DNA of 63,281 nt, counting the filler, from Reclinomonas americana ATCC 50394 (lineage: Eukaryota), in the NCBI GenBank assembly GCA_048213135.1. It is 46 parts of 46 records of this genome, joined end to end, with 100 filler letters (N's around TTAATTAATTAA, not from the genome) between each part and the next. Parts side by side here need not be neighbours in the genome. Positions count along the whole stretch, not along the records: positions 55,185 to 56,450 come from AFZH01025947.1; 45 more parts are not named here. One strand, given 5' to 3'. The notes below the pieces were generated by a model. The model was not told where the DNA came from. It worked only from the letters and a program-made list of their open reading frames with translations, and searched no databases. A program made the position numbers and the translations under genes. Of the stretch, positions 4,064 through 63,281 are shown piece by piece. Numbering within the stretch: the first letter of the stretch is position 1; every line of letters starts with the position of its first letter.

Positions 4064-4223
4064 AGNNNNNNNNNNNNNNNNNNNNNNNNNNNNNNNNNNN
4101 NNNNNNNNNTTAATTAATTAANNNNNNNNNNNNNNNNNNNNNNNNNNNNNNNNNNNNNNNNNNNNCCGCCATCTGCGGGCCCTACCGTCGCGACGGACCG
4201 TGCGTCGAAAGGACTCCGCTGCA

Positions 4224-5454
4224 ATGACATCCCCCTCCCATCGATCTCGTCGAGGCTTCCTCGCTCTTCTCGGAACCGGCGTCGCGTTCGCCGGACTGCT
4301 CGTCGCTCCCGCCGCGCATGCCGCTGATTCATCGCTCGCGGTCGACACCTCGAGCATCCGCACCGACGAGACCGTCACGATCTCCTTCGATGCGGGGGAG
4401 TCCGTGCACGACCGGAACTGGGTCGGGATCTATCGCGACGGTGCGATCCCGGGAGGCCCCGCATCTCTCGACTGGCGGTACGTGCCCGAGGCGAGCGGAG
4501 ACCTCACGTGGGGTCCGTCGGCCCGCGACGGCTGGACGCGCAACACGGCGTCGATGGGAGCCGGCGAGTACGACATCTACCTGCTCGAGGACGACGGCTA
4601 CGGCATCCTCGCCGGCCCGATCGATCTGACCGTCACGGAGGCGGCGACCGAGCCGCCGCGTCCGCCCGCCGAACCCAAGCCCGCCGTCGACGGCGTGAGC
4701 GAACTGAACGTGCTCACCTTCAACGTCTGGCACGGCGGCACTCAGGTCGCCGACGGCGCGCAGCAGATCGCCGACATCATCGAGCAGACCGATGCCGACG
4801 TGACGTTCCTGCCCGAGGTGGGCGACGCGCCCTCCCAGGTCGCTGCGCTGCTCGGCTACGACCACCTCACGGCGACCGACACGGGGATCGTCTCGCGCTA
4901 CCCGATCGTGTCGACCGACACGGTGGGACGCTGGTGGTCGAAGGCGGTCATCGACGTCAACGGCGCCGAGGTCGTCGTCTACGGCGGGCACCTCGAGTAT
5001 CGCTGGTACACGACGTATCTGCCGCGCGGATACGGGGGAGAGATCCACGGCGACTGGCCCGACGGGTGGGACACCTGGGACAAGCTCGACGCACCTGTGA
5101 CCGACGTCGAGGCGATCCTGGCCGCCAACCTCCAGTCGGGTCGCCCGGATGCTGCCGCCGAACTCCTCGCCGACATCGACGCCGAGCGGACTGCCGGCCG
5201 CATCTCCGTCGTCGGCGGCGACTTCAACGAACCTCCCTCGCAGGACTGGACCGCGGCGACGGCCGACCTCTTCGATCACAACGGGGTCATCATCCCGTGG
5301 CAGACGACGCAGACGCTGCTCGACGGTGGTCTCGTCGACGCCTTCCGCGCTGTGCATCCTGATCCTGCGGCGAACCCCGGATTCACCTGGCCGTCGGACA
5401 ATCCGCTGTTCCCGACCTCGTCGCTCACCTGGGCGCCGGAGGCCGACGAGCGCG
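4224..5454 (+). CDS. Bacterial (actinobacterial-like) Tat-exported endonuclease/exonuclease/phosphatase (EEP) family protein, 3' truncated
   Basis: Twin-arginine signal SRRGFLALL with AHA cleavage site; EEP motifs VLTFNVW, GGDFNEP, GLVDAFR, PGFTW; very high GC, no introns. Confidence 0.85.
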
Positions 5455-8329: not shown

Positions 8330-8381
<52 letters not shown>

Positions 8382-16540: not shown

Positions 16541-16854
16541 NNNNNNNNNNNNNNNNNNNNNNNNNNNNNNNNNNNNNNNNNNNNTTAATTAATTAANNNN
16601 NNNNNNNNNNNNNNNNNNNNNNNNNNNNNNNNNNNNNNNNCCGCGTCGAGATGCGGTTCTGAGGGAGCAGGAGCGGCCGTGTCGCTCTCCTGCCGCAAAG
16701 CCATTAGCGCCATCCTGGCGACGCGCTGGCAGTCGGAGAGATGTTTTCGCGCGCCCCGGCCCGCTTTTCGAGCCCGCCCCGCATGCGGCAGCGGTGCTTT
16801 ACCGGTGCTTGCGACTGCCGTAGCCGGCGAGCCGAGTACCGCCGGAGATTTGCC

Positions 16855-17346
16855 ATGCCTCAGTCATCGACCGCTTCGCCCATGTCCACGGGCGCCCTTG
16901 TCCTGCGCTATGCCGGGTCCCTGATTCTCGGAATGGTCGTGCTGAACGTCGTCTTCCTGCTCCTGGAGACGTATTTCAAGCTCAGCCCCGGCAACATGGC
17001 TGCGATGGGCATATTCCTGATCTGGGGAGCGGCCTCGTGGGTCGGCCAGCTCTGGTTCCTGCGCGAGCTGGCGCGCCCTGAATCCGGTCGTGCCTGGACC
17101 GTCGCGGCCCTGTGCGCGCTAGTGACCTACCTGGTCCAGGCGGCGTTCGTGCTCCTCGCCGCTGCGGCGGCGCTGAGCGAGTTCGGAAACCTGGGCCTGA
17201 GCAGAGGCAGCGACCGGATGATCATTCTCGGCGTGTTCGTGGCTGTCGCCGTGCTGGAATTCCTCGTCATCCGCCTTGCCATCGGCGTCGGCGCGAAAGG
17301 GGCCGAGAGGCGGGCACAGCGCCAGGCCGCCAAGGCCGGTGCCTGA
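16855..17346 (+). CDS. Bacterial (alphaproteobacterial-like) small four-TM membrane protein, possibly ABZJ_00895 family
   Basis: GGAG RBS before ATG 16855; four hydrophobic helices with a WFLRELARPE loop; family name tentative. Confidence 0.6.
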   Translation: MPQSSTASPMSTGALVLRYAGSLILGMVVLNVVFLLLETYFKLSPGNMAAMGIFLIWGAASWVGQLWFLRELARPESGRAWTVAALCALVTYLVQAAFVLLAAAAALSEFGNLGLSRGSDRMIILGVFVAVAVLEFLVIRLAIGVGAKGAERRAQRQAAKAGA

Positions 17347-17437
17347 ACGGATACCGTCAACCCAGCGCTATCAGCCGACGTATTGCTGACGAAAAGGTGC
17401 GGAAGTTTCGCAGGCGTCAGAGCCGGAGGCGATCGCG

Positions 17438-17924
17438 ATGGCCATTTTTGTCCTGATACCCGGTGGTTGGCAGGGCGGGTGGGTCTACCAGAAGGTGGCC
17501 GATCTGCTTACGGCGGGTGGGCATACAGCCTTGCCGATCACGCTGTCCGGCCTCGGCGATGAGGCTGCTCCGACGGCCAATCTCGACACTCACATCAACG
17601 AGGTCGTCGAGGTCATGATGGCGCAGCAGGAGAAGGTCATACTCGTCGGACAATCCTATGGCGGTATGGTCGTGAGCGGCGCGGCCGATGCCGTGCCGTC
17701 GCAGATCGGGGCGCTGGTCTATGTCGATGCCTATGTGCCTGATGACGGCGACTCGCTCTGGTCGCTGACGACACCGCGTTTCCGGGATGTCTTCATCGCG
17801 GGAGCGACGGCCGATGGCCTCACTTGCGCGCCGCCCGCCCATCTCGACCCGCGCTGCCGGCCGCATCCGATCGGGACCTTTCTCCAGGCCATCACTCTCA
17901 GCGGGCGCTGGCGCAAGGTACCGC
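17438..17924 (+). CDS. Bacterial alpha/beta hydrolase (methylesterase/SABP2-like), 3' truncated
   Basis: GGAGG RBS; FVLIPGGWQGGW oxyanion loop, GQSYGG nucleophile elbow, LVYVDA. Confidence 0.9.
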
Positions 17925-20786: not shown

Positions 20787-22067
20787 AAACATAATCGCGG
20801 ATGAGCGTACAAGGAAAGGCGTTACACAAAACCTGGCTGGCCGGTATGGGCGTGCCTGTCAGCACGGCGATTTCTTCAAGGTCGCGTCGAATGTCGGCCT
20901 CCGATGGCTCGCTGAAATACGCAGGATTGCGGGCAAAGTTGAGGCGGCGGAAGAAATCCAGAAACGGCACGGTGCGGATGTACAGTGCAGTATCTGTGTG
21001 TGCCATCGACAGAATATATGAGCCGCAGCAGTCAACACAAAAGAAAGTGGGGATTAAATAGACACTGGCACACCGAGACAGTTGAGCTCATCGAGCTGTG
21101 CCACGCGTGTCGGTCGCAAATGCTCCATCTCAATGAGCACCGAGTCATCCAGGTACTCCTCAGGCGACGACTTCTCCGCGTCCGCGACGGCCGCACGAAT
21201 CAGTTGCAGCTGCGTGTGAATGTACTTGTCGAGATTCTCGGGGTCACGAGGAGGCGGCACGGCAGCAACGCGGCGGGCTGCGGCACCAGACGCTCCTACG
21301 ACAGCATGAGTGAGGAGAATGCGAGCCGACAAGGGACATGACGTGAGTGTAATCACCATTACGCTGCGACGGAATCGGAATGCCACCAAGTGAGGTTGGT
21401 GTGTGAGGCAACTGGGTTCCTGGAGGCGCACTCATATCCTCCGTTGCCCGAAAGGGCTGCAAACCGGGCGAAGCAGCAGAGGGCGGCGACGTGGCAGTTA
21501 TCGTCAGAGCAGCAGCTGCAGCTGCGGCAGTCGCCGTTGCTGTCGTCGGAGATGCCGTGGTCACAATGGCGACAGGTGTCTGGCCACCACTGTCGCCTGC
21601 TGCAGACGAAACTGCGGCAGGAGGGGTGGTGGTTGTGGTGGGGGTGGTTGTTGTTGTTGTCGTCGTCGTCGAGGACCCCGTGGCAGCGGTCGCCGCAGCC
21701 GGGATCTCGCTGACTGAGCGGCGCTTGGGAGGCGGTGGCGCCGCAGAATCAACGGCAAGAGAGTCGCGCCGCACCTCGCTGGCTTGCAAATGTGACCGTG
21801 TTTGTTGCATGGCGGCAGGACCAGTGGCGTCGCCGCCCATGGAGAACTGGCGAATCATCAGAGGATCGCCAGCACCAGTTGGGATTGCCACCACGTCGGC
21901 CGCGGCGGGAGCTCCCTGCTGCTGCTGTGGTGGACTGCCGACACCACCCGACGCCTCCATCAGCATGGAGGCGCTGGTGGCCGCGGCCACGGCAGACGTT
22001 GCGCCTCCGATGCCAAGAGACATGCCAGTGGGCGAGGACACCTGCAGCGCAGACACGTAGGTCGCCC
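20787..22067 (-). CDS. Hypothetical protein fragment with Ala/Thr/Ser low-complexity region, copy or allele A
   Basis: Three exons; near-identical to 26307-27587 with synonymous exonic differences. Confidence 0.7.
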
Positions 22068-22168
22068 NNNNNNNNNNNNNNNNNNNNNNNNNNNNNNNNN
22101 NNNNNNNNNNNTTAATTAATTAANNNNNNNNNNNNNNNNNNNNNNNNNNNNNNNNNNNNNNNNNNNNT

Positions 22169-24605: not shown

Positions 24606-24760
<155 letters not shown>

Positions 24761-24925
24761 GACGACGAGACGACGAGAGACGACGACGAGACGTACGACG
24801 ACGAGTACGACGGTACGTACGTACGNNNNNNNNNNNNNNNNNNNNNNNNNNNNNNNNNNNNNNNNNNNNTTAATTAATTAANNNNNNNNNNNNNNNNNNN
24901 NNNNNNNNNNNNNNNNNNNNNNNNN

Positions 24926-26306: not shown

Positions 26307-27587
26307 CAACATAATCGCGGATGAGCGTACAAGGAAAGGCGTTACACAAAACCTGGCTGGCCGGTATGGGCGTGCCTGTCAGCACGGCGATTTCTTCAAG
26401 GTCGCGTCGAATGTCGGCCTCCGATGGCTCGCTGAAATACGCAGGATTGCGGGCAAAGTTGAGGCGGCGGAAGAAATCCAGAAACGGCACGGTGCGGATG
26501 TACAGTGCAGTGTCTGTGTGTGCCATCGACAGAATATATGAGCCGCAGCAGTCAACACAAAGGTAAGTGGGGATTAAATAGACACTGGCAAACCGAGACA
26601 GTTGAGCTCGTCGAGCTGTGCCACGCGCGTCGGTCGCAAATGCTCCATCTCAATGAGCACCGAGTCATCCAGGTACTCCTCAGGCGACGACTTCTCCGCG
26701 TCCGCGACGGCCGCACGAATCAGTTGCAGCTGCGTGTGAATGTACTTGTCGAGATTCTCGGGGTCACGAGGAGGCGGCACGGCAGCAACGCGGCGGGCTG
26801 CGGCACCAGACGCTCCTACGACAGCATAAATGAGGAGAATGCGAGCCGACAAGGGACATGACGTGAGTGCAGTCACCATTGCGCTGCGACGGAATCGGAA
26901 TGCCACCAAGTGAGGTTGGTGTGTGAGGCAACTGGGTTCCTGGAGGCGCACTCATATCCTCCGTTGCCCGAAAGGGCTGCAAACCGGGCGAAGCAGCAGA
27001 GGGCGGCGACGTGGCAGTTATCGTCAGAGCAGCAGCTGCAGCTGCGGCAGTCGCCGTTGCTGTGGTCGGAGATGCCGTGGTCACAATGGCGACAGGTGTC
27101 TGGCCACCACTGTCGCCTGCTGCAGACGAAACTGCGGCAGGAGGGGTGGTGGTAGTGGTGGGGGTGGTTGTTGTTGTTGTCGTCGTCGTCGAGGACCCCG
27201 TGGCAGCGGTCGCCGCAGCCGGGATCTCGCTGACTGAGCGGCGCTTGGGAGGCGGTGGCGCCGCAGAATCAACGGCAAGAGAGTCGCGCCGCACCTCGCT
27301 GGCTTGCAAATGCGACCGTGTTTGTTGCATGGCGGCAGGACCAGTGGCGTCGCCGCCCATGGAGAACTGGCGAATCATCAGAGGATCGCCGGCACCAGTT
27401 GGTATTGCCACCACATCGGCCGCGGCGGGAGCTCCCTGCTGCTGCTGTGGTGGACTGCCGACACCACCCGACGCCTCCATCAGCATGGAGGCGCTGGTGG
27501 CCGCGGCCACGGCAGACGTTGCGCCTCCGATGCCAAGAGACATGCCAGTGGGCGAGGACACCTGCAGCGCAGACACATAGGTCGCTC
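26307..27587 (-). CDS. Hypothetical protein fragment, copy or allele B of 20787-22067
   Basis: Same length and ends; about 20 substitutions by hand count, no indels. Confidence 0.7.
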
Positions 27588-27687
27588 NNNNNNNNNNNNN
27601 NNNNNNNNNNNNNNNNNNNNNNNNNNNNNNNTTAATTAATTAANNNNNNNNNNNNNNNNNNNNNNNNNNNNNNNNNNNNNNNNNNNN

Positions 27688-37232: not shown

Positions 37233-37484
37233 NNNNNNNNNNNNNNNNNNNNNNNNNNNNNNNNNNNNNNNNNNNNTTAATTAATTAANNNNNNNNNNNN
37301 NNNNNNNNNNNNNNNNNNNNNNNNNNNNNNNNGCACTGTATCATAGAGAGATTGCGCATGTGGACGACAAGGTCGATGCGGAGGACTCCGCCAGCACGAC
37401 GAGCTTGAGCCGCCAATAACAGATCGCAGCGACGTCCTCCTGCAAGTGTCCTCCACCACCACTCCTCCGTCTCCTTTTGCGCAC

Positions 37485-38552
37485 ATGTCCGCCACTCCTC
37501 CTTCTCTGCCATGCAAGTGTTTGCTCGGCCACTCCAGGCCCGTGATGTCGGTTGCTGTCTCTCCCGACGGGCAGCACCTTGTCAGCGGCAGTCTGGATAA
37601 ATCCGCTCGTGTGTGGTCGTTGGCCACGGGCGACGAAGTGCTGCAGGTGGAGCACAGTGGCACAGTGTTCTCCGCGAGAGTCACTCCCGATGGCCAGCAC
37701 CTCGTCTGTGGGTGCTCGGACAAGTCCATTCGTGTGTGGTCACTGGCGAGCGGAGAAGAGGTGCGACGCGCTGAAGGGCACTCGACGCTGGTGTGGTCGG
37801 TTGCCATTACTCCCGATGGGCAGCACGTGGTGAGCGGGAGCTTTGATAAGACAGTGCGCGTGTGGTCGATGGAGAGTGGCGAGATTCGGCGACTTGAAGG
37901 GCACACTGATTTGGTGGCGTTTGTCGCGGTCACTACCGACGGCCTGCACGTCGTGAGTGGGAGCCACGACTTGACTGTGCGGGTGTGGTCGTTGGCGAGT
38001 GGAATGCAGGTGCGAAAGTTGGAGGGCCACACCGACATTGTGTGCTCCGTGGCAGTCAGCCCCGATAACCAGCACGTGGTGAGTGGAAGTGAAGACAAGA
38101 CCGTGCGGGTGTGGTCGCTGGCGAGCGGAGAGGAGGTGCGACGGTTGGAGGGGCACACTGGCGCAGTGTTCTCCGTCGCCGTCACTCCCACTGGTGAGCA
38201 TGTGGTGAGTGGCAGCTTGGACAGGACCGTGCGTGTGTGGTCACTGGCGAGTGGCGAGGAGGTGCGCCGACTGGTCGGTCATGCGGCATCGGTGTATGCC
38301 GTGGCCGTCGTCGGCGGCATTCAGCACATTGTGAGTTGCAGTGAGGATCAAACAATCCGCGTGTGGTCCACCCCATTTGGTCTCGCTCGCCAGGAACTCG
38401 AGTGTGCGCGCTTGGCCATGCGCGCTCTGCAGGAGATGCTGCGCGAGGAAGACGAGGTGGAGCGTTGCTTGGTGGAAATGGCGCTGCGCTGCTTCATTGT
38501 CGAAGAGGCGGAGGTCGTTGTTCATTGCCGATCCTACGACGGTGGTTTTTGA
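37485..38552 (+). CDS. Seven-repeat WD40 beta-propeller protein, intronless, with a C-terminal helical tail
   Basis: Repeated GH...V.SVAV(S/T)PDGQHVVSGS.DKTVRVWSLASG. Confidence 0.95.
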   Translation: MSATPPSLPCKCLLGHSRPVMSVAVSPDGQHLVSGSLDKSARVWSLATGDEVLQVEHSGTVFSARVTPDGQHLVCGCSDKSIRVWSLASGEEVRRAEGHSTLVWSVAITPDGQHVVSGSFDKTVRVWSMESGEIRRLEGHTDLVAFVAVTTDGLHVVSGSHDLTVRVWSLASGMQVRKLEGHTDIVCSVAVSPDNQHVVSGSEDKTVRVWSLASGEEVRRLEGHTGAVFSVAVTPTGEHVVSGSLDRTVRVWSLASGEEVRRLVGHAASVYAVAVVGGIQHIVSCSEDQTIRVWSTPFGLARQELECARLAMRALQEMLREEDEVERCLVEMALRCFIVEEAEVVVHCRSYDGGF

Positions 38553-44208: not shown

Positions 44209-44333
<125 letters not shown>

Positions 44334-46956: not shown

Positions 46957-48127
46957 CGTCAAGCAGTTCAACAAGTCGCAGGACGAGATCAAGGTCGTCG
47001 ACACCGAGGTTCCCGCCGACGCGTGGGATCAGAAGATGAAGGCCGCGCAGGCCGCAGGCAAGGCGCCGGACGTCTACACCAGCTCCGCCAACCTGCTCGA
47101 TCTGGTGAACGCCGGATCCGTGCACGAGCTCGACTCGATCGTCTCGAAGGACGCGCTCGGCGAGATCATGGACACCGCCACCTCGATCTCCGAGGTCGAG
47201 GGCAAGCACTACGCCTACCCGCTGCTGCTCGAACCGCAGACCGTGCTGTTCTGGAACACCGACATGCTCGATGCCGCGGGCGTCGACTCCTCCGCGGCTC
47301 CCGAGACCTGGGACGACCTGCTCGCCGCCTGCGCGAAGATCCAGCCGACGCTCGCCGAGGGCCAGTACTGCATCTCGCCCGCGCAGGACGCCGTGACCAT
47401 GGCCTGGTCGACCGTGGGCCAGCAGTACAACTTCGCCGGGCACCTCGCACTCACGGACGACTGGTCCGCGCCCGACATCGACAACGACGGCTACCGCGAT
47501 CTCATGACGCAGTACAAGGAGCTGTGGGACAAGGGATACATGCCTAAGCAGCCGCTCGCCGCGTACGTCGGCGGGGAGGACTTCGGCCAGCAGAAGGTGG
47601 CCTTCAAGGTCTCCGGCTCGTGGATGATGTCGGAGATCGGCTCCGACTACGCCGACCTGCTCGCCAAGACGGGCGTCGGCGCATTCCCGAGCGCTTCCGG
47701 TGCCGACGGCCGCACGGCCACGACCATGGGCAACTTCACCTGGGTGGTCGACGCCAAGAGCAAGAACGCGGAGGCCGCAGGGAAGTTCCTCGAGTGGGCG
47801 ATCGCCGGCGACCCCGAGAACCTCGTGCCGTTCTTCGTCGACACCCAATTCACCAAGGTGCCTGTCCGCCAGTCGGTGCAGGATGCGGTCGCGGCGAGCC
47901 AGGAAGCCGCCGACGCCCCGTGGTCGAGCATCATCGTCGACGACATCGCGCCCGACGCGATCGCCGGCGCCACCTACCCGTGGGACGTGAACCTCGCCGT
48001 GGGCACCGCCATGGAGTCCGTGATGAAGGGCTCGGCGTCGGCGGACGACGCGATCAACACGGCCAAGGCCGCGATCCAGACGGTCATCGACCGTGACGGG
48101 CTGCCCGACAAGGCGCCCAAGAACTGA
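46957..48127 (+). CDS. Bacterial (actinobacterial-like) carbohydrate ABC transporter substrate-binding protein, 5' truncated
   Basis: APDV, GKHYAYP, LFWNTDML, PETWDDL, FGQQKVAF..SGSW, AAGKFLEW. Confidence 0.92.
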
Positions 48128-48134
48128 TATCGCT

Positions 48135-48172
48135 CGCTGTCCGGGGGCCGGGGTCCCGGTCCCCGGACAGCG
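48135..48172 (+). terminator. GC-rich intercistronic stem-loop after the substrate-binding gene (terminator or mRNA stabiliser)
   Basis: CGCTGTCCGGGGGCCGGG / CCCGGTCCCCGGACAGCG inverted repeat with no U-tract; next gene starts at ATG 48202 after GAGGTGG. Confidence 0.7.
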
Positions 48173-48762
48173 TCGCACCCTGAGATCGCGACGAGGTGGA
48201 AATGGCCAGTCAGGCTGTGCAGGAACGCCNNNNNNNNNNNNNNNNNNNNNNNNNNNNNNNNNNNNNNNNNNNNTTAATTAATTAANNNNNNNNNNNNNNN
48301 NNNNNNNNNNNNNNNNNNNNNNNNNNNNNGGGGAGGGTGAGATGCGGTGTACTTAATTGTTGATTCGCAGTGGGCGCCTCCACCCATCTGGCACGACCCT
48401 GTGGCCAACCTGGCCGCCGCCGGTGCTGGTGTGCTGAGTCAGCTGGCGTGGCCGTTTGCCACTCCGTCGACAGCGCAGTGCATTCGCGCCGCGCAGTATG
48501 CTGTGTGGGCAAGGAACACGGTGAGATTGAGAAGATTGGTTGTTTATTACGCGCTGTATGAAGAAGCTCATGAAATGTGTGGGATCACAGGACGGTGCGC
48601 TGCACGGCTCCCCCGATGCCGGCAAGCTCGGATTCTCCACCGGCAACGAGCCATTCAAGCCATGAGCATGCACACGATGGCACGCGCAGTGTTGATCCCC
48701 CCTACTTTTTCTCCTCCTTGAACCACAAAACTTGTAAACGGAATTTCCTTTTTTTCATTGCT

Positions 48763-55084: not shown

Positions 55085-55184
55085 NNNNNNNNNNNNNNNN
55101 NNNNNNNNNNNNNNNNNNNNNNNNNNNNTTAATTAATTAANNNNNNNNNNNNNNNNNNNNNNNNNNNNNNNNNNNNNNNNNNNN

Positions 55185-56286
55185 GCCGGAGATCACACCA
55201 GTCACAGTTGTTGAACCGCTGACCCCGAGGTTGCCGCCAATTGTGGCAGCGCCGGTAATACCGAGAGAGGCCATGGTCGTCGCTCCAGCAATCTGCAGCG
55301 TCCCCGCAATAGTGACACTAGAGCCGAAACTAGTAGCGCCGCTGACGTCAAGAGTGGACGTTGCGTTGACGGGGCCGTTAAGGGTCGTGTTTGTGATGAC
55401 CTTGAATTGTTGAAGCATCGTCAGGTTCCCTTGCATCGTTACATCGCCCAACAGGATCACATGCTGAAACGAGTTGTCCGGATTGATTGTTAGAGTGGTA
55501 TTCGCAGCGTCGCGTGACATGGCCGAGTACGTGCGTCCGCCGAGGAAAAACGTTCTGCCCTCCACGGACAGGGTTCCAGACATGTCGACGTCGGTCGTTA
55601 ACCTCGAAGCTCCACTCGGCGGCACAAAGATCTTGTTCACGCCGTCCACTACAAGCTGTAGTGAATTCGACGAGTCGACTGCGAGTGAAAAAAGGCGATG
55701 GCAGGAACGTAAGGCGCAGAAGCAATGACACGATGTCAAACCCAATACAACTGCACGCAACGGTACATGCCAGTGGACGTCTTATTTTGGAACGAGAATC
55801 CACCCGCGCCAGCCACCGTCCCTGTCGCAGCTAATATGGCACCAGCGACGTCGAGTTTGGCCCCAGGTGACGCATGACCCACGGCCACCATTCCACTGGA
55901 AGCCACAACCAGCCGGTCCAAACCAATCACAACACCGTCACGATAGTCTTCCTCATAATTAATGTACAACTTGGACCGACTGGTGTAGCTGGTGCGGGGG
56001 GTGGCCGAGAAGCGTGTTGCCCTCCCTTCCGAGGTAGAAGCGGCAGACTGTTCAACTCCGTTGGTAAATAGCCTTCGGCGAACGCTGCCACCACGCAGCA
56101 TTTCACCACTAGAGGCGCGAGTGGCGCCGTCTGAGTTGCCGGGGAACAGAGACGACATCTTTGCCAGGTCTCTCTTCGACAAGTCCGCCTCGTCTCCGTC
56201 CTCTACAGACTGGGTGCTGACGTACCGGCTGACGACTTGCATTGCTCGCAGCAATCCATACCGACCTGAATAGCCAGCAGCGTCAC
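55185..56286 (-). CDS. Intron-containing protein with phage tail-fibre-type motifs (intron 55679-55761), open at the 3' end
   Basis: LYINYEEDYRDGVVI; SGMVAVGHASPGAKLDVAG; FSFQNKTSTGMY|LDSSNSLQLVVDG; LTINPDNSF; then LxVxG/GxxTx beta-repeats. Confidence 0.7.
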
Positions 56287-56317
56287 CTGCAGCACGTGCT
56301 GATGTGAGCGACCTACT

Positions 56318-56450
<133 letters not shown>

Positions 56451-56552
56451 NNNNNNNNNNNNNNNNNNNNNNNNNNNNNNNNNNNNNNNNNNNNTTAATT
56501 AATTAANNNNNNNNNNNNNNNNNNNNNNNNNNNNNNNNNNNNNNNNNNNNCT

Positions 56553-56630
<78 letters not shown>

Positions 56631-56667
56631 GCTCGGAAAATTCATCACCCATCTCTTCCCCCATCAC

Positions 56668-56988
56668 ATGTCCGGAGAGAGCGGCACGCAGCTCGTCGAG
56701 CGCTTCTTCGCCGCTCACGGCTTCAGCGGCGTGCAAGCCATCCTCAGCGCCTTGGCGCACGAGCGCGAACGTCGCGTGCACGCCGCGGCAGACAACACCG
56801 AACGCGAGCGCTACTTTGCCGCACAACGCGACGCCACTCCCTTTGACGCCGGTCCCGCTGTAGTCGCCGCCGAGCTGCCCAACGACGCGGCGTTCACAGA
56901 GGCGCGGAGGCATGTGGCCACGGTGCTCGAGAAGGACGCGCTGGCGAAGATCGAGGCCAGGCGGCAAGCAGCTGCAGCTAATCGCGAG
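56668..56988 (+). CDS. Hypothetical Ala/Glu/Arg-rich protein exon
   Basis: GC-rich open frame ending at a putative GAG|GTTCCT donor. Confidence 0.4.
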
Positions 56989-57758
56989 GTTCCTGTCTGC
57001 TATGGACCACCGGAAGTGATGCTCAGAGGGCGAGGAGGAGGAGGCGCGAGAAAGGGAGGCGATGCAGACTCCAAGAAGAAGTGCAATGTGTTGTAATAAA
57101 ACGCTGTATCTCGCTCCCTCACACACACAGAGAGACAGCGATAGAGAGAAAGGTGTCATTGACTTTTTCGTCGTCTTTTCCTTCACCTCGCTCTCTCACA
57201 CACACTTGCATGTTTACATGACCATGGCGCGTAAGCTTTCACATACGCTCCTTCTCCGCAGCCGTCCGCTCGGAAAATTCATCACCGTTGATATATATTT
57301 CACTGGCAGCTATCGGCATTCCGACAGACAGGGGCGGCGAGATGTCCCAACGCACGCGGAGATCAGCAGTACCTCACATGCATATGCGGCGCGAGCTGCT
57401 GGAAGTGCACGATAACCCCCGACGTCGACGTCGAGTCCTCCTCTGTTTTACACAACGAACCGTGCCTGCGCCGATGATGGGCGGTGGTTGGTGTGCTCTT
57501 GTGCGTCACCGCCACCTCTCTCTTTCTCTTGTGAAGAGCCGTTTCTCCACATCGGCAGGTGTGAAGAGAGTCATGTCCTGTACTTTTCACTCCTCATTCT
57601 TTCGACGTCATTCTTTCTCTCTCGCTCCCTTCATAGCGCCTCCGGAGCAACAGTTACACCGTAATTTCTCTGGTGAGTGTGTATGAGATCGCGGATGTGT
57701 GAGGAGTGGAAATTGACATTTGGTGACACTGGAGAACACACCCACCCACACACACACA

Positions 57759-57808
<50 letters not shown>

Positions 57809-57939
57809 CACACACACNNNNNNNNNNNNNNNNNNNNNNNNNNNNNNNNNNNNNNNNNNNNTTAATTAATTAANNNNNNNNNNNNNNNNNNNNNNNNNNN
57901 NNNNNNNNNNNNNNNNNCGGTGAGTCCTGCCCAAGGGCG

Positions 57940-59167: not shown

Positions 59168-60658
59168 GTGCGTGTGTGTGTGTGNNNNNNNNNNNNNNNN
59201 NNNNNNNNNNNNNNNNNNNNNNNNNNNNTTAATTAATTAANNNNNNNNNNNNNNNNNNNNNNNNNNNNNNNNNNNNNNNNNNNNGGCACGGCGCTCAATC
59301 TGCTCAAGCTGCAATGTGTGGAAACCCTCAACGATCTCATGCTGCAACGCGAGTCGGGCATTGTGGTGGAGCTGGCGGCGACGTGCTTGCATTACATGTG
59401 GTGAGTGATGGAGAAGGAGAGGGGTGAGGAGAGAGAAGAGCGGGACGCCCGGAAGAAAGGCAAATGTGGCAGCGAGCGAGTGAGCCTGCTTACACATGCG
59501 GTGATGTTACAACACTTTCTCTCTGTCTTTCACTTTCATTCTGTCTTTCTGTCCTTCATGCTTGCAGCATGTACATTGACTGCATTCCAATCATTGTTCC
59601 TCGCACGCTTTCGTCTCTCTCCGCCACGTGCATGAAAGAATTAGTCAGAGAACACGACCAGGTCGAATCCGAATTGAGTGAATGTGACGACGAACACCTT
59701 TATTCTCTCTCTCTCTCTCTCTCCCAATATCTTTTATGCTTGCCGATGTGTGCATCGGCAAGTGATTTCTGCTGCATTGCGCATTTCCGGCTTGCTTCTG
59801 TCTCTTCCGCAGAGTGTTGTCAAATGTGTACATGATTGCAGCCACTGGCTGTAAGAATGATAGAATGAGAGAGTGATCAATTCGCGGCCAATCCTTTGCT
59901 CTCTTGCTCCACCACCTTCATGCTTGACAATTGCATTATTTGTGATACAAGTAGCGTGTTTCTGGCGATTCTCTCTCTCCACCAACTTTGACTGGAACTG
60001 AGAACAGAAGCCTGCGTCAAGAAAGTATGAGTGAGGGACGAGATGCTACGACCCAATGTTCTCTCTGCCTCCTTCTTGCATGTTGCGATCTTTTCACTGA
60101 GTGTTACTGTGTGACTCTGCTACTGTATGTCCTGTATACGACTGCGGCTCGACTCCCTTCTCTTTCTCTTTGTGTGTCTCCTTCTCATGTATATGAACAG
60201 CTTCCCAAGTATTTGCGATACAGAAGCGTGTTTCTGGAACTCTTCTGTGTCTCTCTGCGCAGTGTAGGGGTTTTCCAAATCAACGAGAGATAAATGAATA
60301 AGCTTGTGAGTGAGTACGTGAGCGAATAAGTGTTACTACTCTATCTCTCTCTTTCTTGGTTGCAGTGTAGAATGTGCACATTGATACAAGCGTGTATCTT
60401 GTTTGAGTATACGGCCAGTTTAATGACAAATTGACAGGATGCATCTGTGTGCCTCTGTCAGTCTATTTCCCCTTGAAGAACTCTGCTTTGGGGCAGTCAG
60501 CGTGAATCATGAAGTGAGTATGTGCATGCTGACTCACCTTCCCCCTTCCCNNNNNNNNNNNNNNNNNNNNNNNNNNNNNNNNNNNNNNNNNNNNTTAATT
60601 AATTAANNNNNNNNNNNNNNNNNNNNNNNNNNNNNNNNNNNNNNNNNNNNCTCGGGTC

Positions 60659-61081
60659 ATGGCTCTTCCGAGCGGCCCGACAGCCCCCTCCTCCACCGCC
60701 GAGGCGGTGCTCTTCGAGCTGGTCGACGATTACGACCGCGCCTACGAGTCCGCTGCGGAACAGCTCTCGCTCACCGCCGCACAGGCCTGCGTGCTCGGCC
60801 GGTTGCACGAGCGCCGAGGGATGGGCTCGCTGGCCGAGGAACTCGGATGCGATGCCTCCAACATCACGCAGCTCGTGTCCCGACTCGAGGCAGTCGGGCT
60901 CGTGACACGCGAGCCAGATCCGTCCGACCGCCGAGCTCGTCTCGTCAAGCGCACGAGACGCGGTCACGCGGTCAACAGGCGGTTCGAGGAGGCGTTCGCC
61001 TTCGGGCGCACCGCCGTGAGCCGCTTGACGGATGCGGAGCAGCAGCAGCTCACCTTCCTCCTGAAGAAGGCCCTCGGGTGA
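60659..61081 (+). CDS. Bacterial MarR-family transcriptional regulator
   Basis: LTAAQACVL...MGSLAEELGCDASNITQLVSRLEAVGLVTREPDPSDRRAR. Confidence 0.93.
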   Translation: MALPSGPTAPSSTAEAVLFELVDDYDRAYESAAEQLSLTAAQACVLGRLHERRGMGSLAEELGCDASNITQLVSRLEAVGLVTREPDPSDRRARLVKRTRRGHAVNRRFEEAFAFGRTAVSRLTDAEQQQLTFLLKKALG

Positions 61082-61767
61082 GCGGGTCGCCGCACCGGCT
61101 GCCACCAGGGCAGCGTGCCGTCGTCGGATTTCCCCGGTTCGGCATCGACCTGCACGCGCCCCCACCGGTGACGGCATCCGAGATCTCCATCGTCGTCGGC
61201 GGCGACGTGGCCGAGGCGCTCGTCATCTCCGACGCTCTCCTGGGATCCTTGCCCCGCACGGCGGTCGACGCCGACCTCCACTGCGTCGCCGGCTGGTCGG
61301 CGACGGACCTGAGGTGGGAGGGGTGGCGCTTCGACGACGTACTGAACCGGCTCATCCTGCCTCAGACGCCCGAGGGCGAACGCATCGCCTTCCTCGTGTT
61401 CATCGGAGCGGACGGCTACCGCTCGATCGTGACCCGGGAGGATGCTGTCCGCGCGAACGTGCTCCTCGCCGACCGGCTCGACGGCGAACCGCTCACGCCG
61501 GAGCACGGCGCGCCGATCCGGCTGGTGAGCCCCGACCAGTACGGCTACATCAACACGAAGCACCTGACGCGCATCGAGCTGCATGTCGAGCAACCCGAGC
61601 CGATCTTCCATCCGCGACGCAGCGTGCAGCGCGCGCTCCGCGCAGTGCATCCGCACGACCGGGCTCGCGTCTGGCAGGAGGAGCGGCACCGGTATCTCCC
61701 CTCATGGCTCACGCGGCCGCTGTACCGGCTCGTCGTGCGGCTGCCTGCTCCGCGAGCCGATCACTAG
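61078..61767 (+). CDS. Bacterial molybdopterin-dependent oxidoreductase (sulfite oxidase/MsrP-like Mo-binding domain)
   Basis: GTG start overlapping the MarR TGA; LPPGQR, DLHCVAGWS, WEG, DGY, LDGEPL..EHGAPIRLVSP..YGY...KHL..IEL. Confidence 0.9.
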   Translation: MSGSPHRLPPGQRAVVGFPRFGIDLHAPPPVTASEISIVVGGDVAEALVISDALLGSLPRTAVDADLHCVAGWSATDLRWEGWRFDDVLNRLILPQTPEGERIAFLVFIGADGYRSIVTREDAVRANVLLADRLDGEPLTPEHGAPIRLVSPDQYGYINTKHLTRIELHVEQPEPIFHPRRSVQRALRAVHPHDRARVWQEERHRYLPSWLTRPLYRLVVRLPAPRADH

Positions 61768-62016
61768 GGGGCGGCGATCATGGCGATCGCGGACGGGAAG
61801 CGACCCGGGGAGGGGCTGCGGAAGTCCGGACTCAGATCGTGTCGTCGGCTGCGATCAGATCGATCTGCCAGAACCGGCCGTCCGGATCCTTCTCGTCGTG
61901 CGCCTCGTCCGCGGCGNNNNNNNNNNNNNNNNNNNNNNNNNNNNNNNNNNNNNNNNNNNNTTAATTAATTAANNNNNNNNNNNNNNNNNNNNNNNNNNNN
62001 NNNNNNNNNNNNNNNN

Positions 62017-62805
62017 CCGGAGCACCACATTGCCGGCGCGCCAGTGAAAGAACGCAGCTGACACGGTCGTCGGCACCATCTGCACCCGCACGAGCACACT
62101 CAGTTGGGGGAGGAGGGAAGCAAGTTTTGTAGGGAAAAAGGAATGACGCAACAGCCAGCAACGATGTGGCGACGGCGGCCTGCTGCGGCTGCTCATGCGC
62201 GCGCAACGCCGTGTAGGCCACCGACAGCGCCGGGGTCACCACAAGACCTCCGCCAATGCCCAACATGGCCGACGCAACACCGGCCACCACTCCCAGCGCG
62301 ACCGACAGCGCCACAGGCAGTCGCGGAGGACCAAACCACGGCGGCGTGGAGGTGGAAAGAGGAGGAGGAGGAGATGATGATGCTGGTGGTGGTGCGAGAA
62401 GCCGCGGTGCCCAGGTGAGTGGAATGGTGGCCAGCAGGAAGCAACCGAGCAGGGTGCCAGCCAGTCGCCCACCACTGGTGGAGGCCGGCAACCAGCGCAT
62501 GCCCAGTGGCACCGACAGCGCAGCACACACTCCAATCGTCGCCGCCGTGCTCACATCCACCACTGCCGAGCCCGGCGACGACAATGCAAAGAAGGACGCC
62601 GCTCCAGCCACGCTGCGCAAACACAATCAGCATGTTGCACCGTCCACCTTCGACAACGACTTTGTCTTACCAAGTGCCCATCACCGCCGTCACCGTCGTT
62701 CCCACCGCCTGCAATCGCACACGCTGTGCACTACTCTCCGCAGCGATCGACGACAGCACACGATGCAACAGCGGCACCGCCACAATGCCTCCACCGACGC
62801 CCTTC
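62017..62805 (-). CDS. TauE/SafE (TSUP) family membrane transporter, eukaryotic, multi-exon (intron 62080-62152)
   Basis: GVGGGIVAVPLL; GVVAGVASAMLGIGGGLVVTPAL...AVATSLLA|MVPTT...HWRAGNV. Confidence 0.85.
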
Positions 62806-63281
62806 ACACGAACAAGGAAAAAAGTCACCAACAACAAACAAGAAAACCCAGTGGATGCAGCATTTTTACTCAACTGCCAGTGAGCCAAACCCGCCCATCA
62901 CTCCGCCCACAAGCAGACTGACGCCCCACGCACGCCGATGCATTGTTGTTGTGGCGATAGAACGTCCTCTCGTCCCTTGTCCGTTTCCCGTCCGATATCA
63001 CATCACTCGCTCTCCGTGGCGAGTTTGTATCTGCGTGCCTGTGCTTGCCTGACACACACACACACGCACGTGTGCAAGGGTGCGTGCGACTGTGTGTTCT
63101 GCCGTTTGTTGTGCCTGCGTGCATTGCCTCAATTTTTCGCCCGTTGCAGCTCGGTTGAAACACTCGTTCTCACACTCACCGCAACAAGGAGACACGCACG
63201 AACGCACACACACACAAGCAGAGGTGACCGCCTGTCACTGCACGACTCATGAGTTACAGTGGTGAGTGTATGTGCGTGTGT

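Follow-up and report, generated by a model that had tools for sequence, protein, structure and literature searches.

Phage-style fibre genes found in eukaryotic assemblies are usually dismissed as contamination or credited to intron-free integrated viruses. MAT (mosaic adhesive trimer) fibres are built of intertwined trimeric beta-helices with conserved capping loops and occur with or without a terminal S74 chaperone (PMC10769870). Phage-like fibre genes that end in S74 are described as ubiquitous in the polinton-like viruses (PLVs) of most protist groups, where they reach up to 3.9k aa (PMC12220804). Introns are also on record in viral DNA: an endogenous giant virus (punuivirus) carries host-type spliceosomal introns in 61 of its 506 genes (bioRxiv 10.64898/2026.10.09.758095), and introners are found in about 25% of the viral elements of dinoflagellates (PMC11957031). 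The locus described here lies in a 63,281-nt stretch of DNA (hereafter the window) from the assembly of Reclinomonas americana ATCC 50394, and our in silico analysis supports its identification as a fragment of a eukaryotic, spliced, phage-type fibre gene in nuclear DNA. Its source was probably viral or bacterial.

The window is composed of 46 pieces, ordered by decreasing length from 1289 down to 1265 bp and joined by 45 artificial linkers of the form N45-TTAATTAATTAA-N45, so that the TTAATTAATTAA dodecamer recurs 45 times at steps of about 1.37–1.39 kb. The pieces are small unplaced contigs that are mutually unrelated; their adjacency is meaningless, and a feature that appears to extend across a linker must be an artefact. 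The fibre piece occupies positions 55185–56450 (1266 bp), has no true neighbours on either side and carries a 339-codon gene fragment without its C-terminus and with an uncertain start. Its main features are as follows.

55762–56286, minus strand: exon 1, encoding an orphan N-terminal region of about 100 residues and then the fibre repeat (GMVAVGHASPGAKLDVAG ... GGFSFQNKTSTGMY)
55841–55894, minus strand: GMVAVGHASPGAKLDVAG, the V-G-x-x-x-x-P-x-x-K-L-x-V-x-G loop motif of trimeric fibres, aligned to residues 193–239 of Bd2133 (8OND)
55679–55761, minus strand: predicted GT-AG intron of spliceosomal type, phase 1, 83 nt (GTTGCGT...TTCACTCGCAG)
55185–55678, minus strand: exon 2, truncated with its frame open where the contig stops, encoding the second half of the fibre repeat (LDSSNSLQLVVDGVNKIFV), LTINPDNSF and G/T/V/S-rich repeats of beta-solenoid type
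55085–55184, no strand: artificial linker at the low-coordinate end of the fibre contig, which cuts off the 3' part of the gene
56451–56550, no strand: artificial linker with an unrelated contig beyond it

The exon-1 frame (55763–56287, minus strand) is free of stops and corresponds to a 175-aa product, P0001; the exon-2 frame (55185–55676, minus strand) corresponds to P0002 of 164 aa. All peptides quoted in an earlier note on this DNA were recovered on the minus strand, in these two open frames of 55185–56286.

The same note had proposed that an 83-nt intron of the GTTGCGT type splits a conserved fibre motif, and our analysis supports this. The intron reads GTTGCGTGCAG...TTTTTTCACTCGCAG (GTTGCGT...CTCGCAG) and is 65% pyrimidine, compared with 49% in the exons. 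When left unspliced, the exon-1 frame hits a stop eight codons into the intron. Its removal joins ...TGMY to LDSSNSLQLVVDG through a split leucine codon (C/TC), after which the frame is open for 339 codons to the contig end, and it restores the spacing SF..TGMY-x4-N-x-L-x-L-x-V-x-G, which is almost invariant in related fibres. The spliced protein was built by script from the window sequence and compared by BLASTP with fetched relatives. The junction was spanned by 45 of 122 high-scoring segment pairs, 12 of them gap-free in residues 160–195; in one such case, AFSFLQDSNTGMYAAGADTLGFATGG of the relative P0138 stands opposite GFSFQNKTSTGMY and LDSSNSLQLVVDG joined across the junction. The remaining 33 pairs were gapped or aligned to different repeat registers.

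Repeat spacing was also assessed from the relatives only, with the window left out, using 44 units in 17 of 150 proteins with the upstream half-motif. Counted from TG[MLIVF][YFWH], these units carry D/N/S at +5 (94%), L/I/V at +7 (100%), F/L/I/V at +9 (96%), T/V at +11 (96%) and G at +13 (93%). All five positions fit in the spliced product, where they are N, L, L, V and G. We then scored splice alternatives with a hidden Markov model (HMM) made from 18 units of eight relatives, the alternatives being GT-AG removals of 30–250 nt that keep the frame open (n = 29). The 83-nt splice ranked first of the 29 with 33.7 bits and covered model positions 2–73 of 75, the runner-up reached 29.6 bits, and exon 1 by itself scored 26.6. 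Among public runs, no RNA run was found to contain this sequence.

The donor of the intron recurs across the window. GTTGCGT is present 25 times on the two strands, compared with 11.21 +/- 3.53 expected from dinucleotide-preserving shuffles (n = 100), and 0 of the 100 shuffles reached 25. Judged by eye and not by count, about half of these sites have, within the next 50–95 nt, a pyrimidine-rich stretch that terminates in (Y)GCAG or CAG. Example sites on the minus strand are at 678, 6212, 13963, 51785, 52262 and 62152. The organism thus seems to favour an unusual 5' splice-site heptamer, with pyrimidine-rich introns of about 50–90 nt closed by (Y)GCAG. Nothing relevant to the GTTGCGT heptamer was found in a literature search. 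Piece 1–1289 carries on its minus strand what we take to be a glycogen-branching-enzyme-like gene with two short introns. Its frame switches across a 67-nt GTTGCGT...CCACAG interval (678–612, minus strand), and the Pfam Alpha-amylase_C match begins one residue past the acceptor. The second intron of this gene, between ...GHPEWL and DFPRAGNG..., begins with GTGAGT, so the heptamer is not universal among host introns. In piece 62017–63281, the Pfam TauE match ends at residue 160 of its ORF (open reading frame) and the GTTGCGT donor at 62152 comes after residue 158. The 83 nt of the fibre-gene intron compare with 67 and 73 nt in host genes. Taken together, these observations support the view that the 83-nt interruption behaves as a spliceosomal intron with the organism's own donor signature, a prediction made in silico.

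Codon choice points in the same direction. The fibre exons scored +0.207 log-likelihood units per codon, which falls among the held-out host ORFs (0.09 to 0.37) and outside the bacterial-like ORFs of the window (-0.18 to -0.02). Their GC content at third codon positions, 0.60–0.65, is at the low end of the host range of 0.64–0.82. These results bear on the reading that the piece is a bacterial or phage contaminant in which the apparent intron would stem from a chance insertion or from misassembly, or would be of the self-splicing kind. The heptamer, the acceptor style, the codon choice and a (TC)n tract upstream of exon 1 together make such a contaminant unlikely, in agreement with the claim of the earlier note that this is not a phage contig. 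In particular, the GT-AG ends coincide with the host's enriched heptamer, removal of the interruption restores both the frame and the exact motif spacing, and the codon choice is unlike that of the bacterial-like pieces. A self-splicing group I or group II intron was excluded by size, 83 nt being far too short for either, and by the lack of any match in an Rfam scan of the window at gathering thresholds.

The protein family is where a contaminant finds its support, since all detectable relatives look prokaryotic or phage-like. Exon 1 was searched with phmmer against a set of 1.84 billion representatives covering about 15 billion proteins. At E<=1e-3 there were 1461 matches, of which 59 reached E<=1e-10 and one reached E<=1e-30. 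All fall in exon-1 residues about 55–175, mostly 117–175, at 33–46% identity, and the first ~100 residues have no relative among these representatives. The relatives range from 414 to 7448 aa with up to 34 matched stretches per protein. Thirteen were scanned for domains: six have Peptidase_S74 at the end, one has the phage tail Collar domain and four match no family, and one also has the T4 gp34 trimerisation domain (Gp34_trimer) and one also Laminin_G_3. An LEA-family match in one relative is surely spurious. The ten relatives that were looked up are all metagenome-derived and bear no informative names. Exon 2 has ten distant relatives, five of them with PF13884. In GTDB genomes, we found four loci in bacterial metagenome-assembled genomes at 32–42% identity, from which no donor can be named. 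JGI metagenomes gave no relative for exon 1 and nine weak loci for exon 2, and tblastn of exon 1 found no match in 50,697 phage records, which speaks against a phage contaminant. Weighing both sides, we consider a bacterial or phage contaminant very improbable.

The canonical unit of this family consists of a G-x-V-G-I-G-x-x-x-P-x-x-K-L-x-V-x-G loop followed by SF-x-x-D-x-N-T-G-M-Y-x4-D-x-L-x-F-x-T-x-G. The fragment carries about one such unit in substituted form, with VAVGHASP for VGIGxxxP and K for D. The only solved structure reached was the Bdellovibrio fibre Bd2133 (8OND; E 1.4e-4), and two of the relatives match the same MAT-fibre structures together with a phage long-tail-fibre tip. PHROG tail-fibre families matched at E 4.9e-4 (phrog_4549, exon 2) and 4.4e-3, and exon 2 is ~31% identical to the tail-fibre genes of nine jumbo E. 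coli phages (E 3e-3). In the ESM Atlas, recognition of exon 1 was below the reliable level; the nearest clusters are unnamed phage proteins, which serves as a lead only. Neither exon matched a Pfam or NCBIfam family above threshold. Bactofilin (PF04519) was rejected at 14.5 bits against a cut-off of 27.9 (E 0.043), as a beta-solenoid repeat resemblance only. Peptidase_S74 was not found in the 339 codons present, and the contig stops at 55185 with the gene still open, short of its C-terminus. The sequence comparisons support the assignment of the motifs to the phage and bacterial trimeric beta-helical fibre repeat family, with a MAT-like shaft and a homology that is real but remote. This was the family named by the earlier note.

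An AlphaFold2 monomer model of exon 2 had a mean pLDDT (predicted local distance difference test) of 55.1. Residues 70–160 alone are ordered in it, as short strands with pLDDT 60–78, and the G/T/V/S repeats are modelled as a beta-solenoid at modest confidence. This region is placed as follows.

55185–55469, minus strand: beta-solenoid-like repeat region, P0002 residues about 70–164

Foldseek of the exon-2 model against the PDB returned no match at E<=1e-3, only generic beta-helix rows.

The 5' region of the fragment allows more than one interpretation.

56240–56242, minus strand: first in-frame ATG (M16 of P0001), possible start codon, 78 nt after the (TC)n tract
56287–56319, minus strand: stretch between the (TC)n tract and exon 1, reading GCTCACATCAGCACGTGCTGCAG, a host-like 3' splice site or 5' untranslated region
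56320–56450, minus strand: 131-nt (TC)n microsatellite with which the contig ends
56066–56080, minus strand: RRRLF, candidate propeptide site suggested by the earlier note

An acceptor-type sequence, GCTCACATCAGCACGTGCTGCAG followed by G, ends at 56287 (CAG at 56287–56289) and by eye resembles host acceptors such as CTCACTCCCACGTGCAG. Upstream of exon 1, the frame remains open through the (TC)n tract. The region may be an intron with its acceptor or a 5' untranslated region upstream of an in-frame ATG. Of the earlier suggestion that the exon follows a (CT)n intron and a CAG acceptor, the tract and the CAG are thus present and the intron is one of two possible interpretations. The N-terminal ~100 residues of exon 1 are rich in S, T, R and G and include the RRRLF sequence. 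With M16 as the start, the N-terminus would be hydrophilic, with no hydrophobic stretch of signal-peptide type after it. None of the five antisense or alternative-frame ORFs of the fibre piece matched a Pfam family.

Long microsatellites of (CT)n/(GA)n type are present on 16 of the 46 pieces, often at their ends (e.g., 8330–8377, 24610–24762, 44209–44330 and 56551–56625), and this frequent terminal position suggests that such tracts break the assembly. On the unrelated piece 56551–57817, an ATG-initiated ORF of 142 codons begins 43 nt after a (CT)n tract. Twenty tracts are not cut short by a gap, and only six of them are followed within 200 nt by an ATG-initiated ORF of at least 100 codons, an inconsistent association.

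We next consider what kind of nuclear DNA this fragment represents. Introns and S74 fibre genes are both on record in integrated viruses, and the intron therefore cannot separate a domesticated gene from a gene of an integrated virus. The earlier note had taken it to mark host nuclear DNA and a domesticated fibre; nuclear residence is supported by our results, and the use of the intron as proof of domestication is not, given the host-type introns known in integrated viruses. Our preferred reading, to which we give somewhat less than an even chance, is that the fragment belongs to, or is a remnant of, an integrated virus-like element such as a polinton-like virus, a virophage or a giant-virus insert. 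Fibre genes of this kind are characteristic of such elements, and further observations speak for a viral vehicle. The relative-less N-terminal 100 aa are typical of fast-evolving virion genes, M16 as the start would leave the product without a signal peptide, as in virion fibres, and the contig is small and unplaced.

Several points weigh against an integrated virus. The 1.27-kb piece shows no capsid, packaging ATPase, integrase or protein-primed polymerase. No viral hallmark family was found among 133 ORFs scanned from the window, which counts for little as the pieces are unlinked. IMG/VR yielded no close relative, with no match for exon 1 and four loci for exon 2 at 31–49% identity. Endogenous viruses of protists are stated to contain no introns (PMC10120064), and the introns of the punuivirus are reported to go with latency genes and not with the virion-protein program (bioRxiv 10.64898/2026.10.09.758095). 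Host-like codon use suits an old resident gene equally well, and the splicing is a prediction from sequence.

The intron-free description of integrated protist viruses also speaks for a stand-alone domesticated host gene, that is, a fibre taken from a bacterium, phage or virus that is now nuclear and would serve the cell as a surface fibre, adhesin or ejectile filament, the earlier note having proposed an extrusome filament among the possible roles. Further points for such a gene are the intron with the host's signature donor and a typical acceptor, the host-like codon choice, the upstream (TC)n tract, comparable to the (CT)n found 43 nt before the ATG ORF of the host-like next piece, and the differences from environmental reads described below, which are only synonymous. 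It is more difficult to reconcile with the hydrophilic N-terminus that follows if M16 is the start, where no signal peptide or anchor is visible, and with the lack of an orthologue in other eukaryotes, no relative exceeding 46% identity and all matches lying in the repeat. Moreover, the literature places such genes mainly in viral elements (PMC12220804), and this predicted gene sits on an unplaced scrap outside any host gene neighbourhood. We regard a stand-alone host gene as a real if doubtful possibility and rank the integrated-virus origin slightly above it; the data do not decide between the two. That a free-living eukaryote, possibly of the soil, took a phage-type trimeric fibre into its nuclear gene set, complete with host introns and host codon use, as its own extracellular adhesive or ejectile filament appears to us rather unlikely.

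On the preferred reading of an integrated virus-like element, the fragment would be read through the host spliceosome, with an intron gained in the nucleus, and, if expressed, would encode the shaft of a trimeric beta-helical attachment fibre of phage or bacterial type. We infer its mode of action from the intertwined trimeric beta-helices and capping loops of MAT fibres (PMC10769870). The shaft would be a beta-helix wound from three chains and interrupted at intervals by V-G-x-x-x-x-P-x-x-K-L loops. Anchoring to a particle may be the role of the N-terminal ~100 residues that lack relatives, and the binding tip would lie in the C-terminal part missing here, perhaps together with an S74 chaperone that cleaves itself off.

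The sole public run that contains the sequence is a rhizosphere metagenome, in which two 151-nt pieces match exon 2 only, at 100% and 98.7% identity.

55259–55409 and 55502–55652: the stretches covered by the rhizosphere metagenome pieces, neither of which reaches the intron

Two further runs of the same rhizosphere study yielded no matching pieces. Both of the differences (55599 and 55614) are at third codon positions and read as synonymous (2/2), TTA>TTG at Leu26 and AGT>AGC at Ser21 of P0002. Selection on the frame, and the occurrence of the organism or element in soil, are thereby weakly hinted at.

The composition of the window adds a further consideration. Eukaryote-like pieces include the glycogen-branching-enzyme-like fragment with introns, Helicase_C, coproporphyrinogen oxidase, 5'-nucleotidase, TauE and a WD40 protein. 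The last is an intron-free ORF of 401 codons (37347–38549, plus strand) with seven blades and a Pfam WD40 score of 234 bits. Three or four high-GC pieces (GC 0.66–0.70) carry bacterial-type ORFs that run from end to end.

4166–5454, 46957–48229 and 60651–61916 (also 16641–17924): high-GC pieces with bacterial-type ORFs
4167–5453: Exo_endo_phos ORF, full-length and of bacterial type, on a high-GC piece
46958–48124: SBP_bac_1/SBP_bac_8 solute-binding protein ORF on a high-GC piece
60652–61764: Oxidored_molyb (molybdopterin oxidoreductase) ORF on a high-GC piece

These high-GC pieces are probably bacterial contaminants in the bin. Host DNA and contaminants thus occur together in the bin, and every piece needs its own argument for where it came from. 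We considered that the fibre piece is the DNA of another organism in the sample, swept into the unplaced bin. This could be another eukaryote or a host virus that replicates in the nucleus without being integrated. The clearly foreign high-GC pieces with their SBP_bac_1, Exo_endo_phos and Oxidored_molyb ORFs speak for this, and the only public run with the sequence is a rhizosphere metagenome that yielded just two short pieces. The donor heptamer, acceptor style, intron length, codon choice and (TC)n tract of the fibre piece nevertheless match those of the host-like pieces; a free virus using the host spliceosome would show identical host-like signals. Overall, we hold an origin in another organism to be improbable.

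Within the window, the fibre gene is a single occurrence: tblastn of both exons returned only the exons themselves, with no paralogue, and blastn of the fibre piece and of the intron against the window revealed no repeat. Pieces 20787–22067 and 26307–27587 are apparently near-duplicates with parallel ORF layouts (21244–22119 with 26764–27639, and 21407–22060 with 26927–27580) and gave twin chance matches in blastn. They may represent a repeat family or allelic contigs.

All of this evidence comes from one 1.27-kb fragment. It is already known that protist genomes harbour phage-like fibre genes and that genes of integrated viruses can contain introns. An intron inside the repeat of such a fibre gene was not found in print; in the open-access literature, we found no report of an intron-bearing tail-fibre gene in a eukaryotic nucleus. 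A host-type intron inside a conserved fibre repeat would mean that the gene has long been nuclear-resident and host-processed, or that it is carried by a virus dependent on host splicing. A stand-alone host gene, if true, would provide a case, open to testing, in which a virion attachment fibre has been taken over for a cellular role, and if the product is the cell's own filament it would be a rare instance, apart from MYRF, of a eukaryotic structural protein that began as a phage virion fibre. If the gene instead belongs to a viral element, it would be a structural addition to the few genes with introns that are recorded from integrated protist viruses, and it would warn that prokaryote-style gene callers miss such genes.

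Among known systems, the MAT fibres of Bdellovibrio bacteriovorus (Bd2133, 8OND) provide the most direct alignment, their loop repeat matching the fragment without gaps at E 1.4e-4. In these fibres, the loops cap a trimeric shaft. They are bacterial and are described with a signal peptide and a conserved N-terminal domain of ~130 aa, neither of which is seen in the fragment (PMC10769870); in addition, the identity is confined to about 47 residues and the fragment has a spliceosomal intron. The S74 tail fibres and tailspikes of phages (PF13884) share their domain with 6 of 13 relatives of the exon-1 motif and with 5 of 10 relatives of exon 2. The fragment differs from them in its spliceosomal intron and in the lack of a phage context, and it is cut before the C-terminus, so that S74 is not in it.

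The fibre genes of PLVs and virophages are likewise modular, of phage type and found in protist nuclear assemblies, and these elements are the only setting described so far in which such genes are common in eukaryotic DNA (PMC12220804). There, recognition relied on S74, laminin-G, collagen or PTR domains and on the viral neighbourhood, and the fragment shows none of these. The giant endogenous viral element of Chlamydomonas formed by the punuivirus and the introner-colonised Maverick-polinton elements (PMC11957031) resemble the fragment in combining a viral-type gene with a GT-AG intron that mirrors the host. The punuivirus introns are reported to go with latency genes and not with virion structural genes. 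MYRF/MrfA have an NDT80-type DNA-binding domain, a transmembrane segment and S74, none of which was detected in the incomplete fragment, and no detectable sequence relationship extends beyond the loop motif. That motif is also found in MyRF (PMC10769870), and MYRF/MrfA represent eukaryotic nuclear genes with phage-fibre ancestry, as the gene described here would.

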